A stretch of DNA of 64,000 bases from Patescibacteria group bacterium. GTDB lineage: Bacteria > Patescibacteriota > Microgenomatia > JAMCZE01. The position numbers and the translations under genes are program-made. The notes under the pieces were generated by a model. That model did no database searches. It was not told the origin of the DNA and was given only the letters and a program-made list of their open reading frames with translations. Of the stretch, positions 17,140-61,842 are shown piece by piece (position 1 is the first letter of the stretch; each line of letters begins with the position of its first letter). The stretch lies in NCBI GenBank assembly GCA_023485845.1, contig JAMCZE010000010.1:156046-220045 (forward strand). Direction: 5' to 3'.

Positions 17140-17332
17140 AAATATTCACCCCCTTAAATAAGTGTCCTTAGTTTACAGACACTGTGTGCATTTTAAGGGG
17201 TACCTGTCCACTTTATAAAGATAATGCAACCATAAGGCAAGCGGATTTCCCATTGTTAATTGATGTTTTTTTTGAAAATGCTAAGCCTAATATCCAAAAA
17301 CTTTTGGCTGTAGAAGCAGAAATTATTAGAGA

Positions 17333-17877
17333 GTGACACTCCTCGCAGCAAGCTGCGAGGCATCTGCATTGCTAAAATAGCCTGAGTTGGTCTTTTGATA
17401 TTTGGACATAGTCTTTTGGTCTTCCTTGGTTTCTGATGTACTTTTGGATGACTGTCTCAGAATTGCTTCGTCCTACTGAATTTACGAAATACCCGTCAGT
17501 CCAAAACTGGGCTCCCCAAAGGCTTTCCCTCAACCCGGCAACTCGTTTGAGAAGTTCCCGGGCCAGGATACTTTTGACCGTTCTGGCAATTTTGGTAGGA
17601 GAATATGTAGGCACTGACTGGATCAAAAAATGGACATGATCACCGTCGGCCCCAATCTCCACAAAATGCATCTCGTACCTTTGGGAAATTTCCTGACAGA
17701 TCTGTTTTAGTTGGGCATCCACCTCTGTCGAGATCACGAGTTGCCTTCCCTTGGCCACACAAACCAGATGGTACAAAAGCACCGAGACATTGTGCGCTTT
17801 GTGTATGTAGATACTCACGCATACAATTTTACCCTCTCGCGGCAAAGCCGCGGGGAATGAACCCTAAAAGAGATTCA
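17333..17877 (-). mobile_element. IS200/IS605-family insertion sequence, copy 2
   Basis: Identical to the 545-bp copy 1. Confidence 0.85.
17372..17845 (-). CDS. tnpA: IS200-like Y1 transposase TnpA (copy 2)
   Basis: Identical to 1594-2067. Confidence 0.9.
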   Translation of the reverse strand: MPREGKIVCVSIYIHKAHNVSVLLYHLVCVAKGRQLVISTEVDAQLKQICQEISQRYEMHFVEIGADGDHVHFLIQSVPTYSPTKIARTVKSILARELLKRVAGLRESLWGAQFWTDGYFVNSVGRSNSETVIQKYIRNQGRPKDYVQISKDQLRLF

Positions 17878-17899
17878 CAATCTTAAAATAGCTTTTAAT

Positions 17900-18355
17900 T
17901 CAGATAACCAGTTTTGCAAAAAGACTTTTGGAGGGAGGCGTGAGTTTAACCTTTGCTAATTCTTCAAGAGTAAACCATTTGTATTCTGACAATTCATCAT
18001 CAAGCTGAACTTTTACCTCACTGCTATTTCTATCATTGATGTCAATTCGATAGACGTTGAAATGCATTTCAACAAGAACCCTCTCATTTGTGTCCTTTAA
18101 GGTTTTTTCTGATGTTCCCGTTCCCTCATCATTAACAAGTTCAGTTGCGTACCCTTCAACCTCTAACCCTATTTCTTCTTTCAGTTCTCTTCTTAATGCC
18201 TGAGTCTTGTTTTCGCCTTGATCCACACCTCCTCCTGGAATATGCCAGCAATCAATATAAACTCCACCGCCAGTTGGATTCTTTTTTACCATCAATAATC
18301 TTTTATCTTTTGAAAAAAGTAAGCCCGATACAATTTCTCTCTTGATCGTTCTCAT
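17900..18355 (-). CDS. NUDIX hydrolase
   Basis: Nudix box GGGVDQGENKTQALRRELKEEIGL. 151 aa. Lies between IS200 copies 2 and 3. Confidence 0.85.
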   Translation of the reverse strand: MRTIKREIVSGLLFSKDKRLLMVKKNPTGGGVYIDCWHIPGGGVDQGENKTQALRRELKEEIGLEVEGYATELVNDEGTGTSEKTLKDTNERVLVEMHFNVYRIDINDRNSSEVKVQLDDELSEYKWFTLEELAKVKLTPPSKSLFAKLVI

Positions 18356-18380
18356 ATTATTTCTTTACGTTGTAATGTAA

Positions 18381-18925
18381 GTGACACTCCTCGCAGCAAG
18401 CTGCGAGGCATCTGCATTGCTAAAATAGCCTGAGTTGGTCTTTTGATATTTGGACATAGTCTTTTGGTCTTCCTTGGTTTCTGATGTACTTTTGGATGAC
18501 TGTCTCAGAATTGCTTCGTCCTACTGAATTTACGAAATACCCGTCAGTCCAAAACTGGGCTCCCCAAAGGCTTTCCCTCAACCCGGCAACTCGTTTGAGA
18601 AGTTCCCGGGCCAGGATACTTTTGACCGTTCTGGCAATTTTGGTAGGAGAATATGTAGGCACTGACTGGATCAAAAAATGGACATGATCACCGTCGGCCC
18701 CAATCTCCACAAAATGCATCTCGTACCTTTGGGAAATTTCCTGACAGATCTGTTTTAGTTGGGCATCCACCTCTGTCGAGATCACGAGTTGCCTTCCCTT
18801 GGCCACACAAACCAGATGGTACAAAAGCACCGAGACATTGTGCGCTTTGTGTATGTAGATACTCACGCATACAATTTTACCCTCTCGCGGCAAAGCCGCG
18901 GGGAATGAACCCTAAAAGAGATTCA
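18381..18925 (-). mobile_element. IS200/IS605-family insertion sequence, copy 3
   Basis: Identical to the 545-bp copy 1. Confidence 0.85.
18420..18893 (-). CDS. tnpA: IS200-like Y1 transposase TnpA (copy 3)
   Basis: Identical to 1594-2067. Confidence 0.9.
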   Translation of the reverse strand: MPREGKIVCVSIYIHKAHNVSVLLYHLVCVAKGRQLVISTEVDAQLKQICQEISQRYEMHFVEIGADGDHVHFLIQSVPTYSPTKIARTVKSILARELLKRVAGLRESLWGAQFWTDGYFVNSVGRSNSETVIQKYIRNQGRPKDYVQISKDQLRLF

Positions 18926-18958
18926 GGAATGGGAAGCACAAGGAGGATTTAATAAGAA

Positions 18959-19174
18959 ATGAAGCTCGGAAAATACCAACATTCCAAAACTGGAAACTTC
19001 TACAGAGTTATTGGTATTGCAAAACACTCTGAAACACTTGAGGATTTGGTCGTTTATGAATGTTTATACGATAACCCTAAAAGCAAGCTATGGGTACGCC
19101 CTAAGAAAATGTTTTTAGAAAAAGTTGAGATCAACGGAAAGAAAGTACCTCGCTTTAAGTTTATTGAAGAATAA
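18959..19174 (+). CDS. DUF1653-family protein
   Basis: YRVIGIAKHSETLEDLVVYECLY...LWVRPKKMFLEKV...VPRFKFI matches the DUF1653 pattern. Confidence 0.7.
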   Translation: MKLGKYQHSKTGNFYRVIGIAKHSETLEDLVVYECLYDNPKSKLWVRPKKMFLEKVEINGKKVPRFKFIEE

Positions 19175-19295
19175 TAGCTGGTTGAGGATTTAAGAACTGT
19201 CTGATCTTTCCAACGTCAAAAGAGCTTATTTCATGCCAAACTTGTCGAAGTTCGGACACGAAGGCCTGCCCTTGAAATTCTGCTAAAATACACAC

Positions 19296-19637
19296 ATGCA
19301 AATTGCCACCGGAACTGTCCACACGGTGCCCCCGGACTTGAAAAAAGCCCTGGCGGCTGACCCCGGCGCGCTGGAAAAATGGAACAGTCTGACGCCGCTG
19401 GCCCGAAACGAATGGATTTGCTGGACAACTTTTGTTAAAAAAGCGCAGACCAGGGAAGAGCACGTTGACCGGGTGTGCTCCGAACTTAAAGACGGCATGC
19501 GCCGGCCGTGTTGCTGGCTAGGCTGCATTCACCGCCCCGACAAACCCCTAAGTCCGTCAGTGAAATATGTGCTTAGCCGAAAAAATATGGTAAAATGGAG
19601 GCATGGTGAATTGGTCCACGGACGAAAAAAAGTTTAA
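19296..19637 (+). CDS. YdeI/OmpD-associated family protein
   Basis: Pattern LKKALAADPGALEKWNSLTPLARNEWICW...AQTREEHVDRV is typical of that family. Confidence 0.6.
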   Translation: MQIATGTVHTVPPDLKKALAADPGALEKWNSLTPLARNEWICWTTFVKKAQTREEHVDRVCSELKDGMRRPCCWLGCIHRPDKPLSPSVKYVLSRKNMVKWRHGELVHGRKKV

Positions 19638-19854
19638 GCGGAACTATCCCAGGGAATATAAACTTTGGCACTTAATCCAACTTATTAATTATGGACTTGA
19701 AGGGGAGAAGCTTGACGAGAAAGAGGTTAGGAAAGCCTGGCCAAGAATAAGGGACCAGTTAGACCCCCATAAGGCAACTTATCTTGAATTCTTATTATGG
19801 GATCACAAACCATCCTCAATCCAATTCAACGAGAATTTCTGGGCCTTATCATAA
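19603..19854 (+). CDS. hypothetical 83-aa protein overlapping the start of the next gene
   Basis: ORF only. 58-bp overlap with the NTase gene in another frame. Confidence 0.3.
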   Translation: MVNWSTDEKKFKRNYPREYKLWHLIQLINYGLEGEKLDEKEVRKAWPRIRDQLDPHKATYLEFLLWDHKPSSIQFNENFWALS

Positions 19855-20462
19855 AGGAACCATATATTCTCAAACATTATTACTGGACCGGTGGGACCGC
19901 ACTGGCTGAATTCTATCTTCGCCATCGGGAATCGGAAGATATTGATCTGTTTTCGGAAAACGAAGTTAATGTCGGGGCGATCTCAAATTTCGTTGGAGCG
20001 ATGGCCAAAAAAATTGAAGCGACCGATATAACCAGCCAGCGTTTCCTTGGGCTCTACAGTTTCACTTTCCACCTGCCGAAAACATCACTAAAAGTTGATT
20101 TTAACTACTATCCTTTCCTTCGAATTGATCAAAAGAAAAAATGGCAAGGATTAGCCGTTGACAGTCTCGAGGACATCGCCGTCAATAAAGTGCACACGAT
20201 GTTTATGAAGCCGCGGGCGAGGGATTTTGTTGATCTTTACTTTATTCTCAAAAAAGAATACGAGTTTTCTTTGGAAAGATTAATCAATCTAGCCGATGCC
20301 AAGTTTGATTGGCACATCGAACCGGTGCAGCTCGGAGAAAACTTTGCCAAAGTGGTTGCAATTAAAGATTTCCCAAAAATGCTCGTTCCTTTTGACAAAA
20401 AAGCCATGGAAAAATTTTTTCTGAATTTAGCAAAATCACTAAAACCGCAGATTTTCCAATAA
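19797..20462 (+). CDS. AbiEii/DUF1814-like nucleotidyltransferase
   Basis: The GGTAL...SEDIDLF motif (GSx10DxD NTase signature) lies near the N-terminus. About 220 aa. Confidence 0.5.
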   Translation: MGSQTILNPIQREFLGLIIKEPYILKHYYWTGGTALAEFYLRHRESEDIDLFSENEVNVGAISNFVGAMAKKIEATDITSQRFLGLYSFTFHLPKTSLKVDFNYYPFLRIDQKKKWQGLAVDSLEDIAVNKVHTMFMKPRARDFVDLYFILKKEYEFSLERLINLADAKFDWHIEPVQLGENFAKVVAIKDFPKMLVPFDKKAMEKFFLNLAKSLKPQIFQ

Positions 20463-26812: not shown

Positions 26813-29206
26813 TTAACTAAAATCCAAAAACCGGAAACGGGCGTTGAGGAATTTCAGAAAGTCAAAGATAAGAATGAAAACAAAGGCGGCGGCCAGAGCC
26901 ATCAACCACTCCCGGCCACCAAGCGGCGTGGTTTCAAAAACGGTGTTAATCGGCAGATAAATAATCGCCAGAGAGAGAACTAGGGACAACCCGGCGGCGC
27001 CGAAAAGATAGCCGTTGGTCAGCGGCGACCGGGTGAGACTCTGCTGGCGCAGCGAGCGAAAATTAAAAGCATTGGCCACCTCCAGAATAATTAAAGCTAA
27101 CAGCGCCTCGGTTCGGCCCGCCAGCCCAAAGACCAGCAGGGTTAAGACCGTCATCAACCCCCCGGCCAAAAAAGCCACCAGAATAAGCCGATTGGTGAGA
27201 ATCTCCGGCTTCTTTCTCGGCGGCTCATCCATGACGTCCTGCGACGATCTATTAAACGCGAAGGTGATCGCCGGCAAATCATCAGTCACCAAATTTAAAA
27301 ATAAAATCTGCAGGGCCAACAGCACCGGCGTTTGCCAGCCAAAAAGCGGCGCCAACAGCACCCCGAAAAACAAAATTGCCAGTTCCGCCAAATTGCAGGA
27401 AAGTTGATAAGTGACAAACTTGCGCATGTTATTAAAAATGGTCCGGCCTTCCCGGATGGCCGTGACAATCGTGGCGAAATTATTATCTTTCAGCGTTAAA
27501 TCGGCCACCGACCGAGCCACATCTGTCCCCCCGATCCCCATCGCCACCCCAATATGCGCCTCTTTGAGAGCCGGACTGTCATTAACGCCGTCGCCGGTCA
27601 TCGTTACCACCTCGCCGAGACTGCGAAGGGCTTTAACGATGCGCAGTTTGTGCTCTGGCCGAACCCGAGCAAAAATGGCCGTTTGCGCCACCACCCGGCC
27701 CAGCTCGTCATCAGTCATCTGGTCCAGTTTCGTTCCTTCCAGCACTTCTCCGGTTAAACCGATTTGCCCGGCCACTGCCAGGGCCGTTTGGCGATGGTCC
27801 CCGGTGATCATCTTAACGGCGATCCCCGCCGCCCGCGCCTCGACGATGGCTTCTTTGACTTCCGGCCGCGGCGGATCGGCCAGCCCCACCAGGCCAAAAA
27901 ACGTTAGATTTGTTTCTCCCCGGCTCGGCCGACCGGCCAGGGCAATTGTGCGATAGGCCGCCCCTGTCCACTCCTGATTAATTTTTTCAATTTCCGTTTT
28001 ATTAAAATTTTTGCACCGGGCTAATACCACTTCCGGCGCCCCTTTAATAAAGGAATAATTTTTCCCGCCCATCTTGCCAAAAACCGCCATCATTTTTTTC
28101 TCAGAACTGAAAGGAATTTCTTCCTCCCGGGTAAAATTTAAGTCCTCACGGAAAACTTTTTCTTTGGCTGCTGCCGCCAAAAGCGCTGCTTCCGTCCCCC
28201 GCCCATTCCCTCCGGCGGGCGTGTCATTGCACAGCACCGCCGCTTGCCAGAGCTTTTCCAAATTCTTGCTGAAAACTTTTTCCACCGTCATCTGCCCGGT
28301 GGTAATCGTCCCCGTCTTGTCCGCGCAAATCACTGTCGTTTCCCCCAGTGTTTCAATAATGGACATCCGGTTAACGATGGCGTTTTTCTTGGCCATCCGG
28401 GAAGCGCCCATCGCCAATGATGTGGCCAAAACCACCGGCATCCCCTCGGGAAAGGCCGAGACCATCAGGGCAATCACCACCACTAAAATGTGAACCAGGG
28501 TTTCCATTGTCACCACCGGGGCGCGAACTATTAATAGGAAACCCGTTAGGGCGGAAATAATAATTGCGATCACCACCATGACCCGGGCAATATTATTGAC
28601 CTTGCCGGCTAGCGGCAATTCTTTTTCGGTGCGCGCGACCAGTTTCACGATCTGGCCAAATTTTGTGCTCATTCCCGTATGTTGGATCGTCGCTGTGGCC
28701 CGGCCGGCCAGGATATATGTGCCGGCAAAAACCATCTCCCCGACTTTTTTGGTGATTGGTTCTGACTCGCCGGTTAACACCGCTTCATCCACCGCCAGCT
28801 GGGACAACTGTGTGATTTTTCCGTCGGCCGGGATCTTTTCCCCAGCCCGCAAAATCACCGTGTCTCCCGGAACAACCGCCGTGGTGGGCACCGATTGTTC
28901 CTGGCCGTCGCGCACCACGGTGGAGCTGGCGGCGGTCATCTCCCGCAACCTTGCCACCGCATTTTCTGCCCGGTATTCCTGAAAAAAGCCCATCCCCACC
29001 ACCAGGAAAATTACACCCGTCACCGTCACTCCCGTCACGTTCTCCCTGATTAGAAAGGAAATTAAGGCTGCCAAAATCAGCAGATAGACAATGAGGTTAC
29101 CCTTAATCTGGGCCAGAACAATGCGCACCGCCGACACCGCGTCCGGGTTAATAATTTTATTCGGCCCCCATTGGACCAAAAGTTTGGCTGCCTCTTGACT
29201 GCTCAC
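26813..29206 (-). CDS. cation-transporting P-type ATPase (P2-like)
   Basis: Motifs CADKTGTITT, MITGDH and VTMTGDGVNDSPALKEAHIGVAMG. 797 aa. Confidence 0.9.
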   Translation of the reverse strand: MSSQEAAKLLVQWGPNKIINPDAVSAVRIVLAQIKGNLIVYLLILAALISFLIRENVTGVTVTGVIFLVVGMGFFQEYRAENAVARLREMTAASSTVVRDGQEQSVPTTAVVPGDTVILRAGEKIPADGKITQLSQLAVDEAVLTGESEPITKKVGEMVFAGTYILAGRATATIQHTGMSTKFGQIVKLVARTEKELPLAGKVNNIARVMVVIAIIISALTGFLLIVRAPVVTMETLVHILVVVIALMVSAFPEGMPVVLATSLAMGASRMAKKNAIVNRMSIIETLGETTVICADKTGTITTGQMTVEKVFSKNLEKLWQAAVLCNDTPAGGNGRGTEAALLAAAAKEKVFREDLNFTREEEIPFSSEKKMMAVFGKMGGKNYSFIKGAPEVVLARCKNFNKTEIEKINQEWTGAAYRTIALAGRPSRGETNLTFFGLVGLADPPRPEVKEAIVEARAAGIAVKMITGDHRQTALAVAGQIGLTGEVLEGTKLDQMTDDELGRVVAQTAIFARVRPEHKLRIVKALRSLGEVVTMTGDGVNDSPALKEAHIGVAMGIGGTDVARSVADLTLKDNNFATIVTAIREGRTIFNNMRKFVTYQLSCNLAELAILFFGVLLAPLFGWQTPVLLALQILFLNLVTDDLPAITFAFNRSSQDVMDEPPRKKPEILTNRLILVAFLAGGLMTVLTLLVFGLAGRTEALLALIILEVANAFNFRSLRQQSLTRSPLTNGYLFGAAGLSLVLSLAIIYLPINTVFETTPLGGREWLMALAAAFVFILIFDFLKFLNARFRFLDFS

Positions 29207-30038
29207 CCTTCCAGTCTAGCAAATTCAACAGGGCCTTGCCCACCCGGCCTCCCGGGCGCAGGCGAAAGAGAAAGAAGCGGTTTGCCGGGCTTTGGACCAG
29301 GCCGGGCAACGTGGAAACGGCCGTGCGAAAACCGGACGCTTTAACAACACTGATGGCCTGGGCGTCAAAAGAACCATAGGGATAAGCAAAGGAAACGACC
29401 CGTTTATTAATAATCTGTTCCAACTGCCATTTGCTCTGGAGAATTTCCGTTTGCGACCGGGCGGACGGCAGGCCCCGCAGTCCAACGTGGTGGACGGTGT
29501 GGGCGCCGATCTCCACCAAACCGTCGGCGGCAATTTGGGCAATCTCCCCCGCCGTCATGTGGTCCACAGCCCCAATCATTCCGGAAATAACATATTGGGT
29601 CGCCGCCGCGTGGTATTTTTTCAAAATCGGATAAACGTCGACATAAAAATCACTGTAGCCGTCGTCAAAAGTCAACAGCACCGGCCTTTCCGGCAGAGCT
29701 TTTTTATTATCCAAAACGTCCGCCAGGTCGGCGGCGGTCAAAAAAGAATAACCGGCGTCGGCCAAGGTTTTAACCTCCAGATCAAAAGTCGCCGGGCTGG
29801 TGTCCAGAGACAGACGGGTTTTGTCATCCTTGTTTTGGAGATATTCCACGTAGTGGAACATTAAAATCGGCACTTTGATCTGGCCCGAGGCGCTGGCGCT
29901 ATCCGCCACCAGCTTTTTGATGTCAGCCGGCACTGGCGCCGGAGCCGGTGTCGGCACTCTGGCCCAGGTCATCCCCGCCCAAAAAGCCAGTCCGGTAACC
30001 AATATTAACAGCAGAAAAAACACCCCAATTTTCCTCAC
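29157..30038 (-). CDS. polysaccharide deacetylase (NodB-homology domain), secreted
   Basis: Signal/TM N-terminus. Motifs LTFDDGY and HTVHH. Confidence 0.85.
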   Translation of the reverse strand: MRKIGVFFLLLILVTGLAFWAGMTWARVPTPAPAPVPADIKKLVADSASASGQIKVPILMFHYVEYLQNKDDKTRLSLDTSPATFDLEVKTLADAGYSFLTAADLADVLDNKKALPERPVLLTFDDGYSDFYVDVYPILKKYHAAATQYVISGMIGAVDHMTAGEIAQIAADGLVEIGAHTVHHVGLRGLPSARSQTEILQSKWQLEQIINKRVVSFAYPYGSFDAQAISVVKASGFRTAVSTLPGLVQSPANRFFLFRLRPGGRVGKALLNLLDWKGEQSRGSQTFGPMGAE

Positions 30039-30161
30039 CCGCTAATCATAACATCTTTTAATTAGGGAGAGACCCTGCCGCCCCACAGGGTCTCTCCCTG
30101 CGAAGGTGCAAATTTTGTCAAATTGGAATAAGGGCTGTATAATCAATCTAATTACGAAATT

Positions 30162-32948: not shown

Positions 32949-33711
32949 GAATTGCGTGGCCGGTGAGGGTCAGGAAAGCATCCTCCATGGAAGTCTTTTT
33001 TGTCTGTTTTTTCAGCTGGGCGGGGGTGCCGGCAGCAATAATCTTGCCGTGGTCCATAATCGCCACCTTGCCTGCCGGCAGGCAGGCCCGCTCGGCCTCG
33101 TCCATATAATGCGTTGTGAAGAACACGGTGATGTTTTCTGTTTTATTCAAATTTTTGATGTACTCCCAAATATGATTGCGCGTCTGTGGGTCCAGTCCTT
33201 GGGTTGGCTCGTCCAGAAAGAAAATCTTCGGATGATGAAGCAGGCCGCGAGCAATCTCTAACCGCCGCTTCATTCCCCCGGAAAAGTTTTTCACTAAATC
33301 ATTGCGCCGCTCCCAAAGTTCAACAAATTTTAAAAGTTCCTCGGCTCTTTTGCGACCCAGGTCGCGCGGGACACCATAAAGCACTCCATGAAACTCCAGG
33401 TTTTCCCAGGCCGTCAGCTCGTCATCCAGGCTGGGATCCTGAAAAACAATGCCGAAAGCCCGGCGGACTGCCTCCTGGTCGGTCGCCGGGTCGGCGCCAT
33501 TAATTTCAATCCTGCCCGATGTCGGCGCCAAAAGGGTGGTCAGCATTTTAATCGTCGTGGTCTTGCCCGCCCCGTTGGGCCCCAAAAACGCGAAAATCTC
33601 CCCGGCGGCCACATCAAAAGAAATGTTGTCCACCGCCAGAAAATTATTGAACTTTTTTGTCAACCCGGAAACTTTAATCATGAAAGTTATGCTATCATTG
33701 GACGATGCCAA
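32881..33711 (-). CDS. ABC transporter ATP-binding protein
   Basis: Walker A GPNGAGKTT, signature LSGGMKRRLEIARGL, Walker B IFFLDEPTQGLD. Confidence 0.9.
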   Translation of the reverse strand: MASSNDSITFMIKVSGLTKKFNNFLAVDNISFDVAAGEIFAFLGPNGAGKTTTIKMLTTLLAPTSGRIEINGADPATDQEAVRRAFGIVFQDPSLDDELTAWENLEFHGVLYGVPRDLGRKRAEELLKFVELWERRNDLVKNFSGGMKRRLEIARGLLHHPKIFFLDEPTQGLDPQTRNHIWEYIKNLNKTENITVFFTTHYMDEAERACLPAGKVAIMDHGKIIAAGTPAQLKKQTKKTSMEDAFLTLTGHAIRDEEAGAIDHLRAGARMWGRRR

Positions 33712-34727
33712 AATACAAGCCGGAGATTGACATCCTCAAAGCGACCGCCATTATCGCCGTGGTTTTGATTCACGTCAGCGCCGCCTATATGGCCCACGGC
33801 TACGATCTAATTAACCTGACAGTCAACCAGGCCGCCCGTTTTGCAGTCCCTGTTTTTGTTGCTCTGTCCAGTTTTGGCTTGGCCGGTAAATACCTAGCAA
33901 CTAAGCTGGAGTTGAAAGATTTCTTCGTCCGTCGGGCCCTGCGGCTTTTACCCTGGTTTTTCTTCTGGGAGGTCATCATTTTTGTCACCGTCACCTATGT
34001 TTTGCGCCAAAGCTGGATTCTTTATGACGGGCTGCCATTATGGAAAATTTTTATACTCGGAAAGGCCGATTATCACCTCTATTTCGTGCCAATGATCTTC
34101 GTTCTTTATCTGTTTTTTCCGATATTATTGCAATTTATTAAACGCTTTCCAAAGCTGACCTTGCTAGCTGCTTTTCTGTTTCAAATTTACTGGTATTGGC
34201 AAATCACGACCCAAACCGAACTGCTTTCCAACCGCAATAATGTCTGGACGGACCAAATGCAATATCTCAACCCCCTCACCTGGATTTTTTACTTCGTTTT
34301 CGGCATGTTTTTAGCTCGTGCTAAAAGCTACAAGCTACAAGCTATTAGCCTAGTTGCTTTGTTAGTTGGTCTTGTCTGGACTGTTGCCAGTTCTGGTTAT
34401 CTGATGTCGTCTGGTTTTGAGATCACCGTCGCCACCCGTTTCACCCGCTTCCCGGTCCTACTCTACTCGATTGGGGTAATCTTGTCTGGCCTTCTCGTCT
34501 TACCTTCTCTCCCGCTTACCCGCTTACCCACTTTCCTCACCCGTCTTGGTAAATTATCGTTATTGGTTTATCTCTGCCACACCCTCGTTCTTCGCGCTGT
34601 GCCGCTAACCTTTCCCGAACCGATAGTCTTTATTTTAGTTTTGGCCGGCAGTTATCTCATCGCTGAAGTTTGCTCCCACATTAGCTTCAAGAGACCACCT
34701 CTCGTGAAGCTACTTGCAAAAAACTGA
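33705..34727 (+). CDS. acyltransferase-3 (OafA-like) family membrane acyltransferase
   Basis: N-terminal IDILKATAIIAVVLIHV motif plus about 10 TM segments. Confidence 0.75.
   Translation: MPKYKPEIDILKATAIIAVVLIHVSAAYMAHGYDLINLTVNQAARFAVPVFVALSSFGLAGKYLATKLELKDFFVRRALRLLPWFFFWEVIIFVTVTYVLRQSWILYDGLPLWKIFILGKADYHLYFVPMIFVLYLFFPILLQFIKRFPKLTLLAAFLFQIYWYWQITTQTELLSNRNNVWTDQMQYLNPLTWIFYFVFGMFLARAKSYKLQAISLVALLVGLVWTVASSGYLMSSGFEITVATRFTRFPVLLYSIGVILSGLLVLPSLPLTRLPTFLTRLGKLSLLVYLCHTLVLRAVPLTFPEPIVFILVLAGSYLIAEVCSHISFKRPPLVKLLAKN
34682..34712 (+). repeat. 31-bp hairpin-containing repeat tagcttcaagagaccacctctcgtgaagcta (left flank of the RAYT gene)
   Basis: Identical to 35408-35438. Contains the imperfect palindrome cttcaagaga-ccacc-tctcgtgaag. 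Confidence 0.8.
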
Positions 34728-34747: not shown

Positions 34748-35410
34748 ATGGCGGCCAAAAACTCGATCAAGGCTTACATCCCTGATGGCTACTACCATTT
34801 ATATAATCGTGGGGTTGCTAAAAATGATATTTACCACGATGAAGTTGACTACGCAGTTTTCTTATCCTATTTAAAAGCCTATTTGCTCCCCAAAGACGAA
34901 GAAAAACTACTAGCTATTGTTGCTTCTCCCCAGGCTAGTTATAAGGAAAAGTATCAGGCAACGAAGCTACTGAACTTAAAAAATTTCTGCGGGGAAATAA
35001 CCTTGCTGGCCTATGCTCTCATGCCTAATCATTTCCATTTGTTAATCAAGCAAAAATCGGCCAGCACAATCGATAATTTTATGAATGCGTTGGGCACCAG
35101 ATATGCTGGTTTCTTTAATCGCAAATATCATCGGGTGGGGCCGTTATTCCAGGGGGTTTACAAAGCCGTTCCGATCCAAACCGAAGAACAACTACTCCAT
35201 GTCTCCCGATATATTCACTTAAACCCTAAGGGACAAGGAAATCTGCCCACTTCTCTACCAGAATATCTTGGCCAACGCGACACCGCTTGGGTAAATAGCA
35301 GTGACATCTTGCACCACTTTAACAAGAAAAGTCAAAATAACTCTTATATTGATTTTATGAAAGCCGTTCCCGACTTGACCACAATTCCCCAACTATTAAT
35401 CGACCTTTAG
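34748..35410 (+). CDS. IS200-like/REP-associated Y1 (HUH) transposase (RAYT-type)
   Basis: N-terminal YHLYNRG, HUH motif MPNHFHLLI, catalytic Tyr region GPLFQGVYKAV. 220 aa. AT-rich. Confidence 0.75.
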   Translation: MAAKNSIKAYIPDGYYHLYNRGVAKNDIYHDEVDYAVFLSYLKAYLLPKDEEKLLAIVASPQASYKEKYQATKLLNLKNFCGEITLLAYALMPNHFHLLIKQKSASTIDNFMNALGTRYAGFFNRKYHRVGPLFQGVYKAVPIQTEEQLLHVSRYIHLNPKGQGNLPTSLPEYLGQRDTAWVNSSDILHHFNKKSQNNSYIDFMKAVPDLTTIPQLLIDL

Positions 35411-35438
35411 CTTCAAGAGACCACCTCTCGTGAAGCTA
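35408..35438 (+). repeat. 31-bp hairpin-containing repeat (right flank of the RAYT gene)
   Basis: Identical to 34682-34712. Confidence 0.8.
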
Positions 35439-40120: not shown

Positions 40121-40873
40121 ATGGGAAAAATTAAAACTGTCAAAATGGGTGATTTGGAAGCAGAAGAGAAAGCTCGGGAGAAAGCCGAGGTCAAACGTGA
40201 GCAAAAGAAAGCAGCCAAGGGAGAGATAAAAGAAGAAAAGCCAGAGACTAAAATCAAGAAAAAAGAGATCAAAAAAGCAGGCCGCGGCAAGAGATATCTT
40301 GAGGTGCGAAGCCTGGTTGACACCAAGAAAAAATATTCGATTGCGCAGGCGGTGGAATTAGTCAAGAAAACCTCAATTTCCAAGTTTGACGGCGCGGTGG
40401 AAGTGCACATTAATGTGGCAGACAACCTGCCTGCCGGCAGGCAGGGGGCTTTGCGCGGCAGTGTTGCTCTCCCCCACGGCGCGGGCAAACAGGTGCGCGT
40501 CCGCGTTGCTGACGACGAGCTAATTGCTAATCCAAAAATCGATTTTGACATTTTAGTTGCCAGTCCGGAGATGATGCCAAAACTGGCCAAGATCGCCAAA
40601 ATCCTCGGCCCGCGGGGGCTGATGCCCAACCCAAAGAACGGCACCATTGGTGATGATCCGGAAAAACTGGCCCTTCGACTCCGCTCTGGGCAGCAAAGCT
40701 GGAAAACGGAGACCGCTGCCCCGATTATTCACACCATTATCGGCAAAGTCTCCTTTGAACCCAAAAAACTGGAAGAAAACTTTTCCGCGTTGACAAAATC
40801 GGTCGGAACGGATAAAATAAAATCGCTTTTTATCAAAGCGACCATGGGGCCGAGTATTCAACTCGAACTCTAA
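40121..40873 (+). CDS. rplA: 50S ribosomal protein L1
   Basis: LRGSVALPHGAGK and ASPEMMPKLAKIAKILGPRGLMPNPK motifs. Confidence 0.95.
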   Translation: MGKIKTVKMGDLEAEEKAREKAEVKREQKKAAKGEIKEEKPETKIKKKEIKKAGRGKRYLEVRSLVDTKKKYSIAQAVELVKKTSISKFDGAVEVHINVADNLPAGRQGALRGSVALPHGAGKQVRVRVADDELIANPKIDFDILVASPEMMPKLAKIAKILGPRGLMPNPKNGTIGDDPEKLALRLRSGQQSWKTETAAPIIHTIIGKVSFEPKKLEENFSALTKSVGTDKIKSLFIKATMGPSIQLEL

Positions 40874-40936: not shown

Positions 40937-41431
40937 ATGGCAAACCAAAAAAACATTGATATTGTTTCTTCACTCTCGGAAAAACTTTCCCGGGCAAAAT
41001 CTGTCGTCCTCACCGACTACCGCGGCCTGACCCACAAACAATCGGAAGAACTGCACCGCGCCGTTAAAAAAGTCGGCGGTGAATATGTTATTGCCAAAAA
41101 CTCCCTTTTAAAAATAGCCTGCCTGCCGGCAGGCAGGCCGGTGCCCAATTTGACGGAGCCAACGGGAGCGCTCCTGGCTTATGACGACGCCCTGGCCCCC
41201 CTTAAGGAGCTGTTCAAAACCGTCAAGACTCTGGGGATTCCCAAAGTGAAGTTTGGTTTTATTGAAAACAAGGAGTACTCCGGTAGCGAAATTGAGACTA
41301 TCGCCAAAATCCCCTCTCGGGAAATCCTGCTGGGACAACTTGTTTTTACTCTGAACTACAACATTCAACAATTAGCATATGTTCTCGATCAAGTTAAAAA
41401 TCAAAAGTCAAAAGTCAAAAATTCAAGTTAA
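40937..41431 (+). CDS. rplJ: 50S ribosomal protein L10
   Basis: Position and sequence (VVLTDYRGLTHKQSEELHRAV...VIAKNSLL). Confidence 0.9.
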   Translation: MANQKNIDIVSSLSEKLSRAKSVVLTDYRGLTHKQSEELHRAVKKVGGEYVIAKNSLLKIACLPAGRPVPNLTEPTGALLAYDDALAPLKELFKTVKTLGIPKVKFGFIENKEYSGSEIETIAKIPSREILLGQLVFTLNYNIQQLAYVLDQVKNQKSKVKNSS

Positions 41432-44091: not shown

Positions 44092-46539
44092 TTAATCCGG
44101 TAATCCGGAGATATTAGAATTGGTGGAAGTATTTTCAACAAAGGCTGAACTCGTCGACGTGCTCGAACTTACCACATCTAAAACCGTTCTCGGTGTCGTC
44201 GTTCCGATCCCCACATTGCCACTTTGTTTAACTACAAAACGGGAAAGTCCTGACGATGAAGCCGTGAAGAGGTCGCCAATGGAATTATCGACAACTAATG
44301 CTGCTTTACTTGTTGCCCCGGAAACAGTTGCCACAGGCAATGTGCCTGATAAAGCCCGAATATCAAGTGTGCCCAAATAGGAGCTTGTCCCAATGCCGAC
44401 ACTGCCTAAGGTATAGATTGGGGGGGTGCTATTAACCACATCGCCAATTCCTATGCTCCAGGCACTTAATAATGACAGGTCGGCTACGTTCCGAGCAAAT
44501 ATCAAATTATATGGAGGACCAGAAGCATCAAACGTGTTGGTGATCGAATACAAACCCCCGGGCACTGCCGTCCCACCGCCAAAATAACTGGTAGTGAGAA
44601 TACTGGTAACTTCCCCCGTTTTTGGAGCCAAAATCAATTGCGGGATGATTCCCGCCGCTTGTGGGGCCCGGATTTCTACCCGACCAGTTGGCGTTGTCGT
44701 TCCGATCCCCACATTCCCGTTCTGGGTAATCACAAAGCGAGAGAGGCCGGAGGAGGAGGCAGTGAAAAGGTCGCCAATACCTTTATTATCCACGATTAAA
44801 CTGGCCATTGCCGTCTGACCGGAAATGGAGGCCACGGGGGTAATCCCGGAATTGCCCCGAAGATCCAAAGTGCCCAGAGGCAGGGTTGTCCCAATTCCTA
44901 AGTTGCCAGAGCTATCCAGTCTCATTCGCTCCACTGCCACGGAACCATTTCCGGTATAAAAGGCCAAGACTCTAGTGTCAGGCAAACCGATTCCCGCCCC
45001 GCCGGCGGCCAACGTCGTTGATACGCCGGGACCAAAGGCCAAGCCGGGCACAGTTGCGCCAAAAGTGGAATTATCAAAGGAAAATCGCGGTTGTGCCTCG
45101 GTGGTGTAATACCCCGCAAGTGTACCAGCGGTGCCACTGGTAGTAAACCGGATATTGACTCCTGTCGTTGAGCCAATTTGAAATTGAGTTAACGGCGTTG
45201 TTGTCCCAATTCCCACATTCCCCGTCCCAGCCACGTAGAGACCTAATGTATTATTTGGATAGAGTTTAACCCCACCAGTGGTAGCACCACCAAGAACCAG
45301 ATCGGCCATACTGGTAGTTCCAATCGATGGTGTGTTATAAACGGTTAAAGCACCGGAAATGGAGGCAGTAGAGTCACTCTTAAAAATAGCTCCATTCACA
45401 GTCACCGAGGCGCCGTTAATGAGAGTAGCCGCGCCATTGCGACCGATGGTTAGCGATGTCTGATTAGCTGTGCCAATCCCCAGAGTACCTGTGGCATCAA
45501 GGGTCTGTGAACCGGTGAGATTAATATTGCCAGCAGTAACGGTTATCCCGTTAGAAACTAGCAGACCAGAGGCGCCACTGATGGTTACCAAGCTGCCATT
45601 ATCAGTGATTGTGGAATCAGCAATCGTTGTCGCATCCGAGAATTTAGCTAAATAGTTTGCCGTTCCCGATCCGTTGATCGTTCCGGTGGGACAATTGCCG
45701 GAAGTGAGACATATCGTTCCGGTTTGATCGGGTACCGTTATTTGGCTGCCGGACCCAACCACAATTTGGCCCGATGCTGCCGGCAAAGTGAGCGAGGTGA
45801 TGCTAATGTCACTTGCCAGAGCCAAACTTGTGCTGCCACCCAGACTGACATCGCCGCCGCCGGAAAGATTGGACCCGGCCGTCACCGTCACTTTGGAATT
45901 GGCCAGAGCGGAATTAGGAATGTTCGTGAAAGTGTTCGCCGAGCCGGAGAGAGATTTATTCGTTAGAGTCTGGGTGCTATCGGGAAGAACCAAAGTCCCA
46001 GCCGTTAGGGTTAAATTGGCGAAAGTGGGGGTCGAGGTGGTCGTCAGGGGCTGATCCAATCCAGCAGCATATTGCAAGTTATTGGCAGTTAAATTGCCAT
46101 TCACCGTGACATCGGTGTTTACTTCTAAAAATTGTCCGCTGGGGGTGGCTGTAGCGAGAACGGAACCACCCGGGATGTTTCTCAAGACGTGGTCTTGTTC
46201 GACAAGACCACGTCTTATAAAGATTCCCCCGATTATCAGCCCCGCCAGAACAGCAAAAACAGGCAAAGCAATCTTCTTGTATATAGTAGTCTTTGGCGCC
46301 ACAAAAGAAATTTCTTCCATCGGCGCTTCCACCACCACTGGCTTGATCCACTCTTCGGGCGCCGGCGGCGGGGTGCTTGGCGGCAAGGGTGGCTTGGGAA
46401 ACTGTGTCACGTCATAAACCCTTGTTCCTCCGGGGGTGCGGACGGAGAGCAGTTTACCGGAGTTGCTCCAGCGCCGCACGGTGTCGATGGAAACACCCAG
46501 GATCTTTGCCGCTTCACCTATCTTAACAGTCTGCTTCAT
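44092..46539 (-). CDS. large repetitive surface protein with an N-terminal HTH domain and TM anchor
   Basis: The start was chosen at MKQTVKIGEAAKILGVSIDTVRRW (HTH). One TM helix follows, then about 700 aa of G/T/S-rich repeats (GNVGIGTTTP). Confidence 0.55.
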   Translation of the reverse strand: MKQTVKIGEAAKILGVSIDTVRRWSNSGKLLSVRTPGGTRVYDVTQFPKPPLPPSTPPPAPEEWIKPVVVEAPMEEISFVAPKTTIYKKIALPVFAVLAGLIIGGIFIRRGLVEQDHVLRNIPGGSVLATATPSGQFLEVNTDVTVNGNLTANNLQYAAGLDQPLTTTSTPTFANLTLTAGTLVLPDSTQTLTNKSLSGSANTFTNIPNSALANSKVTVTAGSNLSGGGDVSLGGSTSLALASDISITSLTLPAASGQIVVGSGSQITVPDQTGTICLTSGNCPTGTINGSGTANYLAKFSDATTIADSTITDNGSLVTISGASGLLVSNGITVTAGNINLTGSQTLDATGTLGIGTANQTSLTIGRNGAATLINGASVTVNGAIFKSDSTASISGALTVYNTPSIGTTSMADLVLGGATTGGVKLYPNNTLGLYVAGTGNVGIGTTTPLTQFQIGSTTGVNIRFTTSGTAGTLAGYYTTEAQPRFSFDNSTFGATVPGLAFGPGVSTTLAAGGAGIGLPDTRVLAFYTGNGSVAVERMRLDSSGNLGIGTTLPLGTLDLRGNSGITPVASISGQTAMASLIVDNKGIGDLFTASSSGLSRFVITQNGNVGIGTTTPTGRVEIRAPQAAGIIPQLILAPKTGEVTSILTTSYFGGGTAVPGGLYSITNTFDASGPPYNLIFARNVADLSLLSAWSIGIGDVVNSTPPIYTLGSVGIGTSSYLGTLDIRALSGTLPVATVSGATSKAALVVDNSIGDLFTASSSGLSRFVVKQSGNVGIGTTTPRTVLDVVSSSTSTSSAFVENTSTNSNISGLPD

Positions 46540-52876: not shown

Positions 52877-53054
52877 CTGATCCGGTTTGATCCACTCCCG
52901 TTGGGATCTCCCCTGCTAAAAACTCTAAGATAGAAAATTGTCACTTTTTTAAAACTGCCAAACTGCCAAATCTGAACACTTTTTTTCGAGCCTAAAATCT
53001 GGTTTATGTGACTTAAGTAACTTAAGTTACTTAAGTCACTTATAGGTCGTCGCT

Positions 53055-58267: not shown

Positions 58268-58450
58268 TTAACCTTCTTTTGTCTCTGGGCGATTCCTTTT
58301 TTCTCGAGCCCGCCTCTCCACTTCCTCCGCTAACCGCCGGTTAGCTTCTTGTTGCAGTTGGGTCACGTCGCCACGATCAGCTGCCTTTTGTTCCTGCTGT
58401 CTGATCTGTGCTTCTTTAAGTCTTTTTGTTAGTGGTCCAGCCATCATCAC
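58268..58450 (-). CDS. small charged hypothetical protein
   Basis: ORF only. Confidence 0.3.
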   Translation of the reverse strand: MMMAGPLTKRLKEAQIRQQEQKAADRGDVTQLQQEANRRLAEEVERRAREKRNRPETKEG

Positions 58451-60057
58451 ATCCTTTCCAAGGCTTCGATGCCCAAAAGATTTAAGCCGTTTTTTAAAAC
58501 ATCCGCTGTCGTCGCGGTCAATTTCAACCGCAAATCATTGCCCAAAATCGGGCAATTGTTATAGAAATTATTATAGCGCTTCGCCAGTTCAAATAAATAG
58601 GAACAGACTAAATTTGGGGCATATTGCCTAGCCGCCGCCTCCACCACCTCGGGAAAACGGTAGAGATAGCGCAAAAGAGCCAGTTCTTCATTAGTTAGTT
58701 CTCCCGTGATTTTTGCCTTTTGATTTTTGCCTTTTGATTTGCGAAGTACGCTCTGCGCACGAGCAAACGTGTATTGCAAATACGGCCCCGAGTCACCCTG
58801 CAGTTCAAACATTTTCTCCCAATCAAAAACAATGTCGCTTTGGACACCATGTTTTAAGTCAAAATATTTAATCGCCCCAATCCCCACAGCCTGGGCAGCT
58901 TCCTGACTGCCCAATTTAGCCGCCCTGGCAATCGCCTCCTGTAAGATGCCTTCCAATTTTGGTGTGTTTCCTTCTCTGGTCCGGAATCGGCCGCTGGGCC
59001 AGCGGTACATCCCATGGCGAGTGTGGCACAAAATCGCTCCCTGTTTAACATAGCCCAGTTGTCTTGCCACCGCAAAAACCTGACGAAAATGCAGTTCCTG
59101 ATCAACACCCACTTCATAGATCATTATGTCCGGATTCCACTGTTCTTTACGAAATTTTAACGTGGCCAAATCACGAGTGGCGTAAGTGGTTGCCCCATCG
59201 CTTTTAACCAGCATCAGCGGGATTTTAATGCCGGGAATTTCAACCACTCGGGCGCCATCACTTAACTTGGAAATTTTTTGCGCGTCCATAATCACTGCCG
59301 GCATTTTGTCCTCATAGAAACTTTCCCCATAAGCAAAGTCAATCTTCACACCAAGCAGGTCAAAAATCCGGTTAAATTCTTCCATGGAAACATCCACGCA
59401 CTTTTTCCAAAGATTCCGGGCCTTTTTGTCGCCGTCTTCCAGCCGCTTGAACCAGAATCTGGCGGCCGCTTCCATCTGCGGTGTTGACTGCCGGTGAAAT
59501 TCAACGTACCATTTTTCCAAATCATCAATGGTGAAATCGCCCTTTGCCTTCTCGTTAATCATGTAGAGCAGCTTGCCGAATTGGGTTCCCCAGTCGCCCA
59601 GATGGTTGTCACCGATCACTTTGTAGCCCAATGACTGATAAATGTTATAAAGAGCCTGGCCAATGATCGTGGAGCGCAGATGGCCCACGCCAAAACGGCG
59701 GGCAATGTTAGGAGCCGCATAGTCAATCACCACCGTTTTTCCTTTGCCAATTGGCGCGATCTCAATCTTTTGCGCTGCTTCCATTAACGCTGCTGGGGAC
59801 AAGGTGAAGTTAATAAATCCCGGCCCAGCAACACTAGCTTCAAGAGAGGTGGTCTCTTGAAGCTGGACCACAATTTTTTGTGCCACTTCCCGGGGATGGC
59901 CAGTTTTTAACTTCAGGGCAATGTTTGTGGAATAATCGCGGTGCTCCTGGGCTGTCGGGTGTTCCAGCTCAATATCTTCCGGCTTTAGATTAATTTCCGG
60001 GAAAGCTGTTTTCACAGCTTTTAAAACGGCCTGGCGAATGTCATCGGCAATCATCAT
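58447..60057 (-). CDS. argS: arginyl-tRNA synthetase
   Basis: AGPGFINF, the class I HIGH-type region (APNIARRFGVGHLRST), and overall length. Confidence 0.9.
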   Translation of the reverse strand: MMIADDIRQAVLKAVKTAFPEINLKPEDIELEHPTAQEHRDYSTNIALKLKTGHPREVAQKIVVQLQETTSLEASVAGPGFINFTLSPAALMEAAQKIEIAPIGKGKTVVIDYAAPNIARRFGVGHLRSTIIGQALYNIYQSLGYKVIGDNHLGDWGTQFGKLLYMINEKAKGDFTIDDLEKWYVEFHRQSTPQMEAAARFWFKRLEDGDKKARNLWKKCVDVSMEEFNRIFDLLGVKIDFAYGESFYEDKMPAVIMDAQKISKLSDGARVVEIPGIKIPLMLVKSDGATTYATRDLATLKFRKEQWNPDIMIYEVGVDQELHFRQVFAVARQLGYVKQGAILCHTRHGMYRWPSGRFRTREGNTPKLEGILQEAIARAAKLGSQEAAQAVGIGAIKYFDLKHGVQSDIVFDWEKMFELQGDSGPYLQYTFARAQSVLRKSKGKNQKAKITGELTNEELALLRYLYRFPEVVEAAARQYAPNLVCSYLFELAKRYNNFYNNCPILGNDLRLKLTATTADVLKNGLNLLGIEALERM

Positions 60058-60062: not shown

Positions 60063-61316
60063 TTAAACCACATCAGCCCGCTTTCTTCCAGACCACCCCA
60101 AAATCAATCCCCCTAACAAGAGATAGTAGCCAAAGACAAATGTCAAATCAACCCCGGTTATCTTTAGCAAAAATTCCGGGTGACTGCCAAAGGCATTGAC
60201 CACCCAAAGGAAGAAATCCAGAAGTACGCTCGCCGGCAACATTACCAGCCGAGCTAGATCAATCGATATCACACCCACTAAACCAGTAAAACCACCCAAA
60301 ATCATTAACGGTTCCACCGTCCAGAGGACTAAAACGTTAGTTATGAGTGAAACCAATGAAAAACTGGTGAAAAAAATCAGGATTATTGGGAGCGTGAAGG
60401 TTATGGCCAGAAAACTCTGGAGAAAATTCTCAATAATTAATTGTCTAACGTTTGGCAATTTAATCTTAAGACTGCTAAGAAATATCTGGCTGGCCATGGA
60501 AGTGAAACTCAATAAAAAGCTCGCGCTCACCAGAAGCTCTGGCAGGGCCCATAACATCAGGTAGGCGGCAGTTAACAGGCTCACTAGGCCGGCTTTTTGC
60601 CGCCCAAGGTACTCCCCAAGCAGGGCAACCACCGCCATGATGGTGGCACGCACAATTGGGGGCGCAAACCCGGTTATAGTGCAGTAAAACCCTATCGAAA
60701 TAATAATTAATAGCGCTCTTACTATCTTTGTGGGTCGGAAAGCGTTAATTAACCAAATGACAAAACCCGAAAACAGGCTCACATTCATTCCGGAGGCGGC
60801 CACCACATGGGTTAGGCCAACATTGGCCAACTTAATTTTAAACTGGCGATCCAACCCAATGCTCCCCAAGACAATACCGGACAAAAGCTGGGCTTGATTA
60901 TTAAAAAGGGCCTCGCGGTAGATAGTGGTGAACCGGCCGCGCACCGCCAGGGCCGTTTTCACCCACCAGTTGGGTTCTCGGCTGGCCACCAGTTCCACAG
61001 TAACTTTGGTCAGACAGCTTCCCGAACAGGCCACCGTGCCGCTGGTTTTTAACCGGTCACCATACTGCCAAACCGGGGCCAGCGGCGCGTAGACACGCAT
61101 TTGATCAATCATAAAGACCTGCCGGCCCTGATCCACCGTCGGCTGCTCACCCAGCTCTCCTTCCAGTGTCACCTGTTGGCCGACAACATAAGTGATCCTG
61201 TCAAATTGCCAATAATGCCAGACTCGCAGCAGCAGGGTAACAAAGAGGAAGCTAATAAACAGCCACCGCATCTTTAATCTTATCATAAACTGACTGGCTA
61301 ACAACCTTGCGGTCAA
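60063..61316 (-). CDS. comEC: ComEC/Rec2-family competence channel protein (no metallo-beta-lactamase domain)
   Basis: Competence-domain motif GLTHVVAASGMNVSLF. Multiple TM helices. 417 aa. Confidence 0.7.
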   Translation of the reverse strand: MTARLLASQFMIRLKMRWLFISFLFVTLLLRVWHYWQFDRITYVVGQQVTLEGELGEQPTVDQGRQVFMIDQMRVYAPLAPVWQYGDRLKTSGTVACSGSCLTKVTVELVASREPNWWVKTALAVRGRFTTIYREALFNNQAQLLSGIVLGSIGLDRQFKIKLANVGLTHVVAASGMNVSLFSGFVIWLINAFRPTKIVRALLIIISIGFYCTITGFAPPIVRATIMAVVALLGEYLGRQKAGLVSLLTAAYLMLWALPELLVSASFLLSFTSMASQIFLSSLKIKLPNVRQLIIENFLQSFLAITFTLPIILIFFTSFSLVSLITNVLVLWTVEPLMILGGFTGLVGVISIDLARLVMLPASVLLDFFLWVVNAFGSHPEFLLKITGVDLTFVFGYYLLLGGLILGWSGRKRADVV

Positions 61317-61842
61317 TCAAATCGGAAATACTCTGATAGGGCCGACTAGTAATAATCTTAGTGGCCGTCGCCGGACCGACCCCGGGAAGGGCATCCAGTT
61401 CCTGGGCCGTGGCCGAATTAATATTAATTAAGTTACCTAAGTTATTATTTTGAGATTCCTCCTGCGTCGGAATAAAGATTTTCATCCCGTCAGTTAATCG
61501 TTGAGCTAGATTGATTGATTTAGACACATACATTCGGTCGGCATTCGCTGCCAGTCCTCCTGCGGAAATGAGCACGTCATTGACGCGGGAATCATTTGGC
61601 ATTTCATATAATCCGGGCTTCTCCACCGCTCCAGAGATGTCAATTTTCACTGTTTTTGCTTTTATTACCCCGGCGGACGACGCCACCCCGGTTGAATCTG
61701 ACAAGGTTTCTGATGTTGTTTGGTTCGTTTTGAAATAGTTAATGGTTAAGCCGGCAACCATTAAAATAACACCGGCCCCCGCCATAATTAGGGGAAGAAA
61801 TTTCTTAAGCGGTGACAAAATTGATAATTTTTCCGGGAACAT
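61252..61842 (-). CDS. comEA: ComEA DNA-binding protein (helix-hairpin-helix)
   Basis: INSATAQELDALPGVGPATATKII HhH motif. N-terminal TM. Confidence 0.8.
   Translation of the reverse strand: MFPEKLSILSPLKKFLPLIMAGAGVILMVAGLTINYFKTNQTTSETLSDSTGVASSAGVIKAKTVKIDISGAVEKPGLYEMPNDSRVNDVLISAGGLAANADRMYVSKSINLAQRLTDGMKIFIPTQEESQNNNLGNLININSATAQELDALPGVGPATATKIITSRPYQSISDLIDRKVVSQSVYDKIKDAVAVY

Follow-up and report, generated by a model that had tools for sequence, protein, structure and literature searches.

How does a DNA hairpin that elsewhere flanks a transposase-like gene come to lie in frame within the essential gene of an aminoacyl-tRNA synthetase? The question is raised by a 64,000-nt stretch of contig JAMCZE010000010.1 (hereafter the window, to which all unassigned positions refer) from a member of the Patescibacteria, which are ultra-small bacteria. 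Here argS, the gene of arginine–tRNA ligase, contains a stem–loop that is nearly identical to two hairpins bordering a gene for a 220-aa Y1 HUH protein, about 24 kb away (Table 1). This protein resembles the transposases associated with repetitive extragenic palindromes (REPs), termed RAYTs. We consider it likely that argS carries a solo copy from a REP-like hairpin family belonging to this RAYT/IS200-like gene, and that this copy was fixed as a tolerated passenger.

The hairpin in argS

The + strand of the hairpin reads AGCTTCAAGAGAGGTGGTCTCTTGAAGCT, and the sense strand of argS across it is (C)AGCTTCAAGAGACCACCTCTCTTGAAGCT(A). The initial annotation had recognized a copy of the flank repeat of the RAYT-like gene within argS, and the sequence, coordinates, and in-frame position of this copy were confirmed. 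Instead of the 10-bp stem given there we found a perfect stem of 12 bp with a 5-nt loop, and the identity to the flank copies, given as 30/31, amounts to 28 of 29 positions over the palindrome and 29 of 31 over the 31-nt family unit described below. Folded as DNA, the hairpin has an energy of –12.6 kcal/mol (z = –5.0), a value not reached by any of 200 shuffled sequences. With up to three mismatches allowed, the window has no matches besides the two flank copies, which lie on the opposite strand and show one mismatch each.

The host gene was identified by its matches to TIGR00456 (410.9 bits), tRNA-synt_1d (266 bits), DALR_1, and Arg_tRNA_synt_N. Its DNA shows no difference among five assemblies, namely the window, three Logan assemblies, and the NCBI assembly GCA_023378825.1. 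Because these further, independent assemblies are identical over argS, the hairpin is real and fixed in the sampled populations.

The hairpin codes for the argS codons from the second base of Q65 to A74 (QLQETTSLEA), followed by S75, V76, and the motif AGPGFINF. The peptide LQETTSLEAS, previously placed directly before this motif, is thus in frame as claimed, but its borders had to be shifted. Likewise, the copy is in reverse orientation only with respect to the + strand; on the sense strand of argS, where the loop reads CCACC, its orientation is the same as that of the copies adjoining the transposase-like gene. In the argS copy the 5′ foot has C in place of its outer T, so that it reads CAG instead of TAG on the sense strand. 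The foot CTAG on the antisense (+) strand (59834–59837) is unbroken. As read from the sequence, the 29-nt hairpin core is open in four of the six frames and the canonical 31-nt unit with TAG feet in two. The argS copy occupies a frame in which the canonical foot would be TAG, and the reading frame is open only because the foot is CAG. Like intragenic REPs and Rickettsia palindromic elements (RPEs), the argS copy is therefore a stop-free, in-frame part of its open reading frame (ORF).

The GC skew is negative at both loci, which places the flank copies and the argS copy in opposite orientations on one replichore. Since the hairpin unit is nearly palindromic, nothing was concluded from this orientation.

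The hairpin family of the Y1 gene

The 220-aa protein passes the cutoff of Pfam Y1_Tnp (36.1 bits, cutoff 23), and the two histidines of the HUH motif and the catalytic tyrosine expected of a RAYT (H95, H97, and Y155) are invariant in the alignment of its family (A1). This patescibacterial family is very large, a search having returned 7,892 proteins at E ≤ 1e-5; the best non-self match is 66% identical. An exact look-up of the 220-aa protein returned no contig on record, and a search of solved structures with the single sequence gave nothing relevant. Judged by its sequence, "RAYT-like Y1 HUH protein" is an apt label for the product; its score against the curated RAYT family lies below the cutoff (see below).

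Scanning species genomes, we confirmed 551 relatives of the Y1 gene in genome contigs, and 79 loci were fetched. In most of these loci a 31-nt hairpin is found on both sides of the Y1 gene. The family unit consists of a 13-bp stem and a 5-nt loop with double feet, NTAG at the 5′ end and CTAN at the 3′ end, and has the consensus T-TAGCYTCGCAAGG-N5-CCTTGCGARGCTA-A. In the hairpin alignment (A2) the foot is invariant at A, G, and C and nearly so at the T before them, and its first position holds mostly T, otherwise C or G; the 3′ CTAN mirrors this pattern. The NTAG foot is related but not identical to the canonical 5′ GT[AG]G tag of REPs. With stems of 12–13 bp, a 5-nt loop, and DNA folds at z = –4 to –5, the copies are short palindromic stem–loops in the size range of REPs (20–40 nt).

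Among loci with copies in a strict scan the upstream copy most often lies 25 nt before the start of the Y1 gene. The downstream copy often begins right after the last codon, so that its foot TAG is the stop codon. The same holds for the window, where the stop codon of the Y1 gene is the foot at 35408–35410. Relative to each other the flank copies are direct in 10 cases versus 3. In 33 aligned hairpins 96% of the cells are paired, and compensatory changes occur at 6 of the 13 pairs, one of which is CG in 16 and UA in 15 hairpins. With a covariance model built from the aligned copies, three sites and no more were recovered in the window, together with many in the related loci. A CRISPR-like repeat was rejected, as two copies bracket one gene and solo copies lie elsewhere.

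The hairpin variant is specific to the gene that it flanks, in the window as well as in most of the 79 loci. Upstream, internal, downstream, and solo copies of one locus share peculiarities of loop and stem, and the contig L068 carries two different Y1 gene copies, each with its own hairpin variant and its own solo copies. The window variant (inner stem AAGAGA/TCTCKT) is common to the closest relatives, L008 to L010. The internal copies are third copies which stand in frame in many Y1 homologues just after the Tyr motif, encode peptides such as LASQGDALR, and match the flanks of their own gene; the Y1 gene of the window is without such a copy.

Sequence sharing stops at the hairpin. Multiple near-identical full-length copies with defined ends and a target tetranucleotide, as known from IS200/IS605 elements, were not found, the window containing a single copy of this Y1 gene. 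Where other genomes have several Y1 copies, these are divergent paralogues with 54–62% identity to the query. Two Logan contigs terminate within the downstream flank copy, as expected because the repeat is of k-mer length. The upstream flank copy is crossed by the last codons of an acyltransferase ORF (33705–34727), whose final ~16 residues (…HISFKRPPLVKLLAKN) lie past the end of the Pfam domain match at residue 319 of 340. Its C-terminus is therefore partly encoded by the repeat.

Solo copies in other genes

When 185,579 species genomes were scanned with an exact pattern of the window's hairpin variant, nothing was found, and in metagenomes this exact variant was met only in three short contigs of unrelated context (L001, L002, and L003). 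Under strict criteria, the related loci (1.15 Mb scanned) yielded 75 hairpins, of which 21 were upstream copies, 15 internal to the Y1 gene, 19 downstream, and 20 solo copies. The solo copies are mostly situated at gene ends or between genes. Six, however, lie deep within long ORFs: in addition to ArgS these encode an M16 peptidase (L040), CarA (L035), a DUF2298 membrane protein (L066), and a PMT_2-type and a YfhO-like protein (both L068). A seventh intragenic copy, in a PBP1A gene (L043), is a weaker match to the covariance model. The search for the hairpin proposed in the initial annotation thus led to three sites in the window and to intragenic copies in further genes of related loci.

The PBP1A copy (L043 2646–2678) is unlike both variants of the Y1 genes on the same locus. 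Its loop and the resident sequence downstream share the 8-mer GGATCAAC (QGSTLQGGSTITQQ), a hint that local templating or duplication took part in its formation.

Table 1. Hairpin copies and associated genes in the window, in related loci, and on metagenome contigs (L001–L003) (CM, covariance model; AF2, AlphaFold2)
Feature	Location	Strand	Remarks
Solo hairpin copy inside argS	59836..59864	-	Perfect 12-bp stem, 5-nt loop; CM R1 36.3 bits, E = 6e-8
argS, arginine–tRNA ligase, 536 aa, host gene of the solo hairpin	58447..60057	-	Profile matches and AF2 model
Upstream flank copy	34683..34711	+	A.G stem mismatch; 36 nt before the transposase-like ORF; CM 40.5 bits
Y1 HUH transposase-like (RAYT-like) gene, 220 aa	34748..35410	+	HUH H95, H97; Tyr Y155; Pfam Y1_Tnp
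Downstream flank copy	35409..35437	+	Orientation as upstream copy; A.G stem mismatch; CM 42.6 bits
Internal copies in Y1 homologues	L014 10496-10528; L064 10505-10537; L071 10505-10537; L065 10475-10507; L051 10481-10513		
Internal copies in Y1 homologues (further copies, and others)	L080 8459-8491; L054 1289-1321; L072 918-950; L078 7035-7067		
Hairpins at the M16 site	L040 13592-13622; L089 10503-10533; L090 8835-8865		Proteins P0241-P0360
Solo copy	L001, intergenic		Foot CAG
Solo copy	L002, just upstream of an acyltransferase gene		T variant, perfect stem
Solo copy	L003, end of a P-type ATPase gene		Provides seven final codons and the stop TGA

Protein length at the hairpin sites

Following the initial annotation, an alignment of ArgS orthologues should reveal the hairpin codons as inserted residues. 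This was not the case. The stretch encoded by the hairpin aligns residue for residue with the enzymes of E. coli (HLDLNGIASKVE) and human (HLPDNECIEKVE), and the window protein is 1 aa shorter. Measured from the DYSTN anchor, AGPGF follows at a distance of 31 residues in the window, well within the range of 21–47 (median 34, one outlier of 237) of 97 patescibacterial orthologues. A simple 30-nt insertion into an ancestor with a short loop was rejected as well: between the helix anchor (A.KI) and AGPGF every orthologue whose sequence was inspected has at least nine residues, whereas only four would remain in the window protein if the ten hairpin codons were taken away. In contrast to what is described for intragenic REPs and RPEs, the argS copy hence adds no residues relative to orthologues. 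On the basis of these alignments the hairpin appears to replace about ten resident codons instead of adding to them, because of which the length of ArgS is unchanged.

The AlphaFold2 model of ArgS has a mean pLDDT of 91.4 and is confident in the two blocks that contain the segment (94 and 91). Here Q65–T69 form the last turn of a helix (55–69), T70–L72 lie in the connecting loop, and E73–A74 at the start of a strand (73–77). Within the N-terminal domain no stretch is less conserved than this site, which varies among orthologues in sequence and in length. In the orthologue P0007 an insert of ~190 aa is found at the same helix–strand connection (codons 65–75 of the window gene), and the site must therefore tolerate large additions. 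Conservation of the segment in ArgS of unrelated bacteria lacking the RAYT element had been named beforehand as refuting the initial interpretation; unrelated organisms do have the segment as a structural element, but in sequence it is not conserved.

Similar results were obtained for other conserved enzymes. The M16 peptidase copy (L040, peptide LALQGESLRSY) aligns without gap to ten homologues, and the length of the region is equal in 114 of 120 orthologues. The CarA copy (L035) is 1 aa longer than human CPS1, and the PBP1A copy (L043), which lies in the transglycosylase domain, is 1 aa longer than Aquifex PBP1a; here the 3′ arm codes for the Q and G of the invariant QGGST motif. In these four enzymes the length change is thus between –1 and +1 residues. 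The nearest relative of the L040 M16 peptidase is 75% identical, too distant to compare the DNA before and after the arrival of the hairpin.

Plain insertions occur too. In the YfhO-like ORF (L068:126) there is a gap of exactly 10 aa relative to a paralogue at the hairpin, and the internal copy of the Y1 genes appears as an insertion or deletion in the alignment A1. The length-neutral cases may go back to insertion plus loss, filtered by selection, or to a one-step exchange or templated patch.

Matched variants at fixed sites

The internal copy is situated ~470–540 nt from the start of Y1 genes which are only ~50% identical to each other; in spite of this, internal and flank copies of one locus match. 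A comparable situation was observed at the M16 site. Hairpin-type peptides are encoded there in 18 of 120 orthologues (65–75% identical), with differing middle residues. The DNA of L089 and L090 has true family hairpins at this site (12 of 13 pairs) with different stems and loops, no hairpin is present in the DNA of a third orthologue (L091), and the L040 copy is identical at 30 of 31 positions to the flank hairpin of its own genome. Copies at fixed sites have thus either been homogenized, or the same codon site has been hit again and again. In other M16 orthologues the sequences look like decayed hairpins (LRASDASTLRTY versus LLASQGSTLRGY), the length being equal in all.

The one difference between the argS copy and the flank copies within the palindrome concerns stem position 23. 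The flank copies, L001, and L003 have a G, which causes an A.G mismatch; T is found in the argS copy, L002, L009, and L010. The initial annotation had noted a change from g to t which makes the stem perfect. The T does perfect the stem, but the direction was probably the reverse: because the related hairpins L009 and L010 have T, this base is probably ancestral and the G spread later among some of the copies. In argS the T gives Leu72, whereas a G would give Arg.

Origin of the argS copy

From what is known of TnpAREP of E. coli and of IS200/IS605 elements a possible course of events can be sketched. The Y1 protein would bind the hairpin in single-stranded DNA, cut beside it, and join strands, and this joining could spawn or refresh copies elsewhere. 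One copy would have been fixed in argS, in the least conserved N-terminal stretch, with the frame kept open by the CAG foot. It would stand in for ~10 resident codons and may have arrived by insertion and loss of these codons, by a one-step swap, or by a templated patch. The argS hairpin is then most likely a tolerated passenger and not a functional part of ArgS. With this case REP/RAYT-type systems and intragenic REPs extend to the Patescibacteria, and a selfish hairpin is seen to have become fixed within the essential gene of an aminoacyl-tRNA synthetase.

Several points weigh against this interpretation. The action of the Y1 protein on the hairpin is putative and drawn from analogy. With NCBIfam REP_Tyr_transpos, the curated RAYT family, the 220-aa protein scores 39.2 bits at a cutoff of 80, and a search of solved structures with the family profile had ISDra2 TnpA as its sole match, a weak one (E = 0.04), although both motifs were aligned. 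The 64-kb window contains only three copies. Moreover, the gain of ~10 codons expected from plain transposition is absent in ArgS, and the nearest ArgS relative, being 64% identical, is too distant for a DNA comparison of the states before and after.

We considered four alternatives. First, the argS copy could be a 10-codon patch which was rewritten in place and then refreshed, without change in length, either by a transposase-dependent cassette exchange or by short-patch gene conversion or template switching from other copies. This is a possibility of lower probability. It would account for the near-constant length of the four enzymes, for the locus-specific variants shared by copies at fixed positions (the flanks and the site inside the Y1 gene), and for the M16 codon site, where stems and loops differ between L040, L089, and L090 and the L040 copy resembles its own flank. 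Gene conversion of REPs is also an old proposal (Higgins 1988, as cited in PMC3116915). On the other hand, the cases are only four, survivorship could enrich length-neutral outcomes in structured enzymes, and plain insertions of 10 aa occur in the YfhO-like ORF and in the Y1 genes. Homology of donor and recipient outside the hairpin is not visible. On a rough neighbour-joining tree the hairpin state of the M16 site is scattered (11 changes), a pattern equally compatible with a hot spot that gained hairpins repeatedly, or with decay. The wider proposition that the patescibacterial family overwrites ~10-codon stretches in ArgS, M16 peptidase, CarA, and PBP1A, keeping their length and matching fixed-site copies to the current variant of the genome by transposase-driven cassette exchange or short-patch conversion, is still more tentative. 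Should the length-neutral pattern and the concerted evolution hold, HUH enzymes could rewrite short gene stretches in place, which would bear on the spread and uniformity of REPs, a question since the 1980s, and on HUH enzymes as editing tools.

Second, the hairpin could have been co-opted, for example as an mRNA structure tuning the translation or stability of argS or as a protein-binding site. In the sense RNA the hairpin would form as part of a stable local fold (–36.5 kcal/mol over 101 nt, z = –3.2), the copy is fixed in the five assemblies, and its stem is perfect, unlike those of the flank copies. However, no sign was seen that the RNA fold matters, the hairpin is lineage-specific among 120 ArgS orthologues, solo copies stand in many unrelated genes and at intergenic sites, and the T which perfects the stem is probably ancestral and not an adaptation. 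A search of Rfam with the hairpins gave no match, and a terminator was rejected since there is no T tract beside the argS hairpin. Co-option is therefore regarded as improbable.

Third, besides a footprint or target of the RAYT element, which would be a candidate mechanism, it had been suggested that argS is the source from which the element captured its hairpin. Apart from the near identity of the copies nothing points in this direction, and the suggestion was rejected: homologous Y1 genes in dozens of Patescibacteria genomes are flanked by hairpins of one family, in which the feet are conserved and the stems covary, the window variant is shared with the relatives L008 to L010, and no hairpin-type peptide was found in any frame at 119 other ArgS orthologues. 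A capture from argS is thus very improbable. Finally, chance similarity or a chimeric assembly, for which nothing could be put forward, is practically ruled out by 100 dinucleotide shuffles with no match at up to three mismatches and by the four further assemblies with identical argS DNA.

Comparison with known systems

REP/RAYT-type systems and intragenic REPs have already been published; the patescibacterial family differs in its NTAG feet, mostly direct flanks, low apparent copy number, and phylum. It resembles the REPtrons of Proteobacteria (PMC3479197, PMC3337134, PMC3116915) in that a Y1 HUH gene is bordered by a short hairpin whose conserved foot contains TAG, every such gene goes with a cognate variant, and scattered solo copies lie mostly near the 3′ ends of genes. 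TnpAREP of E. coli requires the GTAG foot and the hairpin and cleaves at CT dinucleotides (PMC3479197). Unlike in these systems, the foot is mostly TTAG and not GT[AG]G, the flank copies are predominantly direct, the apparent copy number is low, the 220-aa protein scores under the NCBIfam cutoff for RAYTs, and no REPIN doublets were seen.

Intragenic REPs, some of them in tRNA synthetase genes, and REP feet which supply genes with TAG stops are documented (Di Nocera et al. 2013, PMC3733652), and work cited there deals with RPEs in coding genes. The present hairpins share the in-frame position in coding genes including those of tRNA synthetases, and the feet serving as stops. Those elements are described as insertions adding residues, whereas the ArgS, M16, CarA, and PBP1A copies shift the length by at most one residue.

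Double-foot REPs and in-frame REPs within tnpAREP genes are known from TnpAY1 subclass 2.4 (Quentin et al. 2018, PMC6006769), a survey in which Patescibacteria are not mentioned. The feet on both sides of the hairpin and the third, in-frame copy in many transposase homologues are similar here, but the internal copy follows the Tyr motif (~codons 160–172) instead of lying between HUH and Y, and the likeness described is one of features. With IS200/IS605 elements the system shares the Y1 HUH enzyme and same-strand hairpins at both ends of a compact gene unit. It differs in that the window has no multiple identical full-length units and that what moves or is copied singly is just the hairpin.

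Other repeats and mobile elements of the window

The window also contains a classical IS200-type TnpA of 157 aa in three identical copies (1594–2067, 17372–17845, and 18420–18893, all on the minus strand; Pfam Y1_Tnp 117.6 bits). Each of them is followed by the palindrome CCTCGCAGCAAGCTGCGAGG (1563–1582, 17341–17360, and 18389–18408). Since these copies exist besides the 220-aa gene, the genome has two distinct Y1 HUH systems. Two identical rve-type integrase ORFs (254 aa, IS3-like) are located 1.2 kb apart at 14890–15654 and 16068–16832 on the minus strand. The GC content is 0.38–0.44 in the first 20 kb (1–20000), where the insertion sequence copies cluster, and 0.47–0.54 elsewhere.

Directly upstream of argS a comEC-like gene (Competence, PF03772) and a comEA-like gene (SLBB and HHH_3) are found on the minus strand (60063–61842).

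A parallel between the argS hairpin and in-frame LPAGR palindromes had been drawn in the initial annotation, and such a second family, (G)CCTGCCTGCCGGCAGGCAGG(C), was indeed found in other conserved genes. It stands in frame in an ABC ATPase gene and in the genes of ribosomal proteins L1 (NLPAGRQG) and L10 (CLPAGRPV), at 33069–33090, 40426–40445, and 41117–41138. The palindrome segment of L1 is only 1 aa longer than the corresponding part of B. subtilis L1. No transposase associated with this family was identified.

Three further palindromes were observed. A 14-bp-stem hairpin, AGGGAGAGACCCTG..CAGGGTCTCTCCCT, lies at 30064–30099 just downstream of the ORF 29157–30038. At 46184–46216 an 851-aa ORF with an N-terminal MerR-type HTH contains a hairpin (AAGACGTGGTCTTGTTCGACAAGACCACGTCTT) whose 15-bp stem is perfect and whose loop has 3 nt; this hairpin occurs once in the window. 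The perfect 32-nt palindrome GTGACTTAAGTAACTTAAGTTACTTAAGTCAC at 53008–53039 is situated between ORFs ending at 52876 and 53055 and has an operator-like look.

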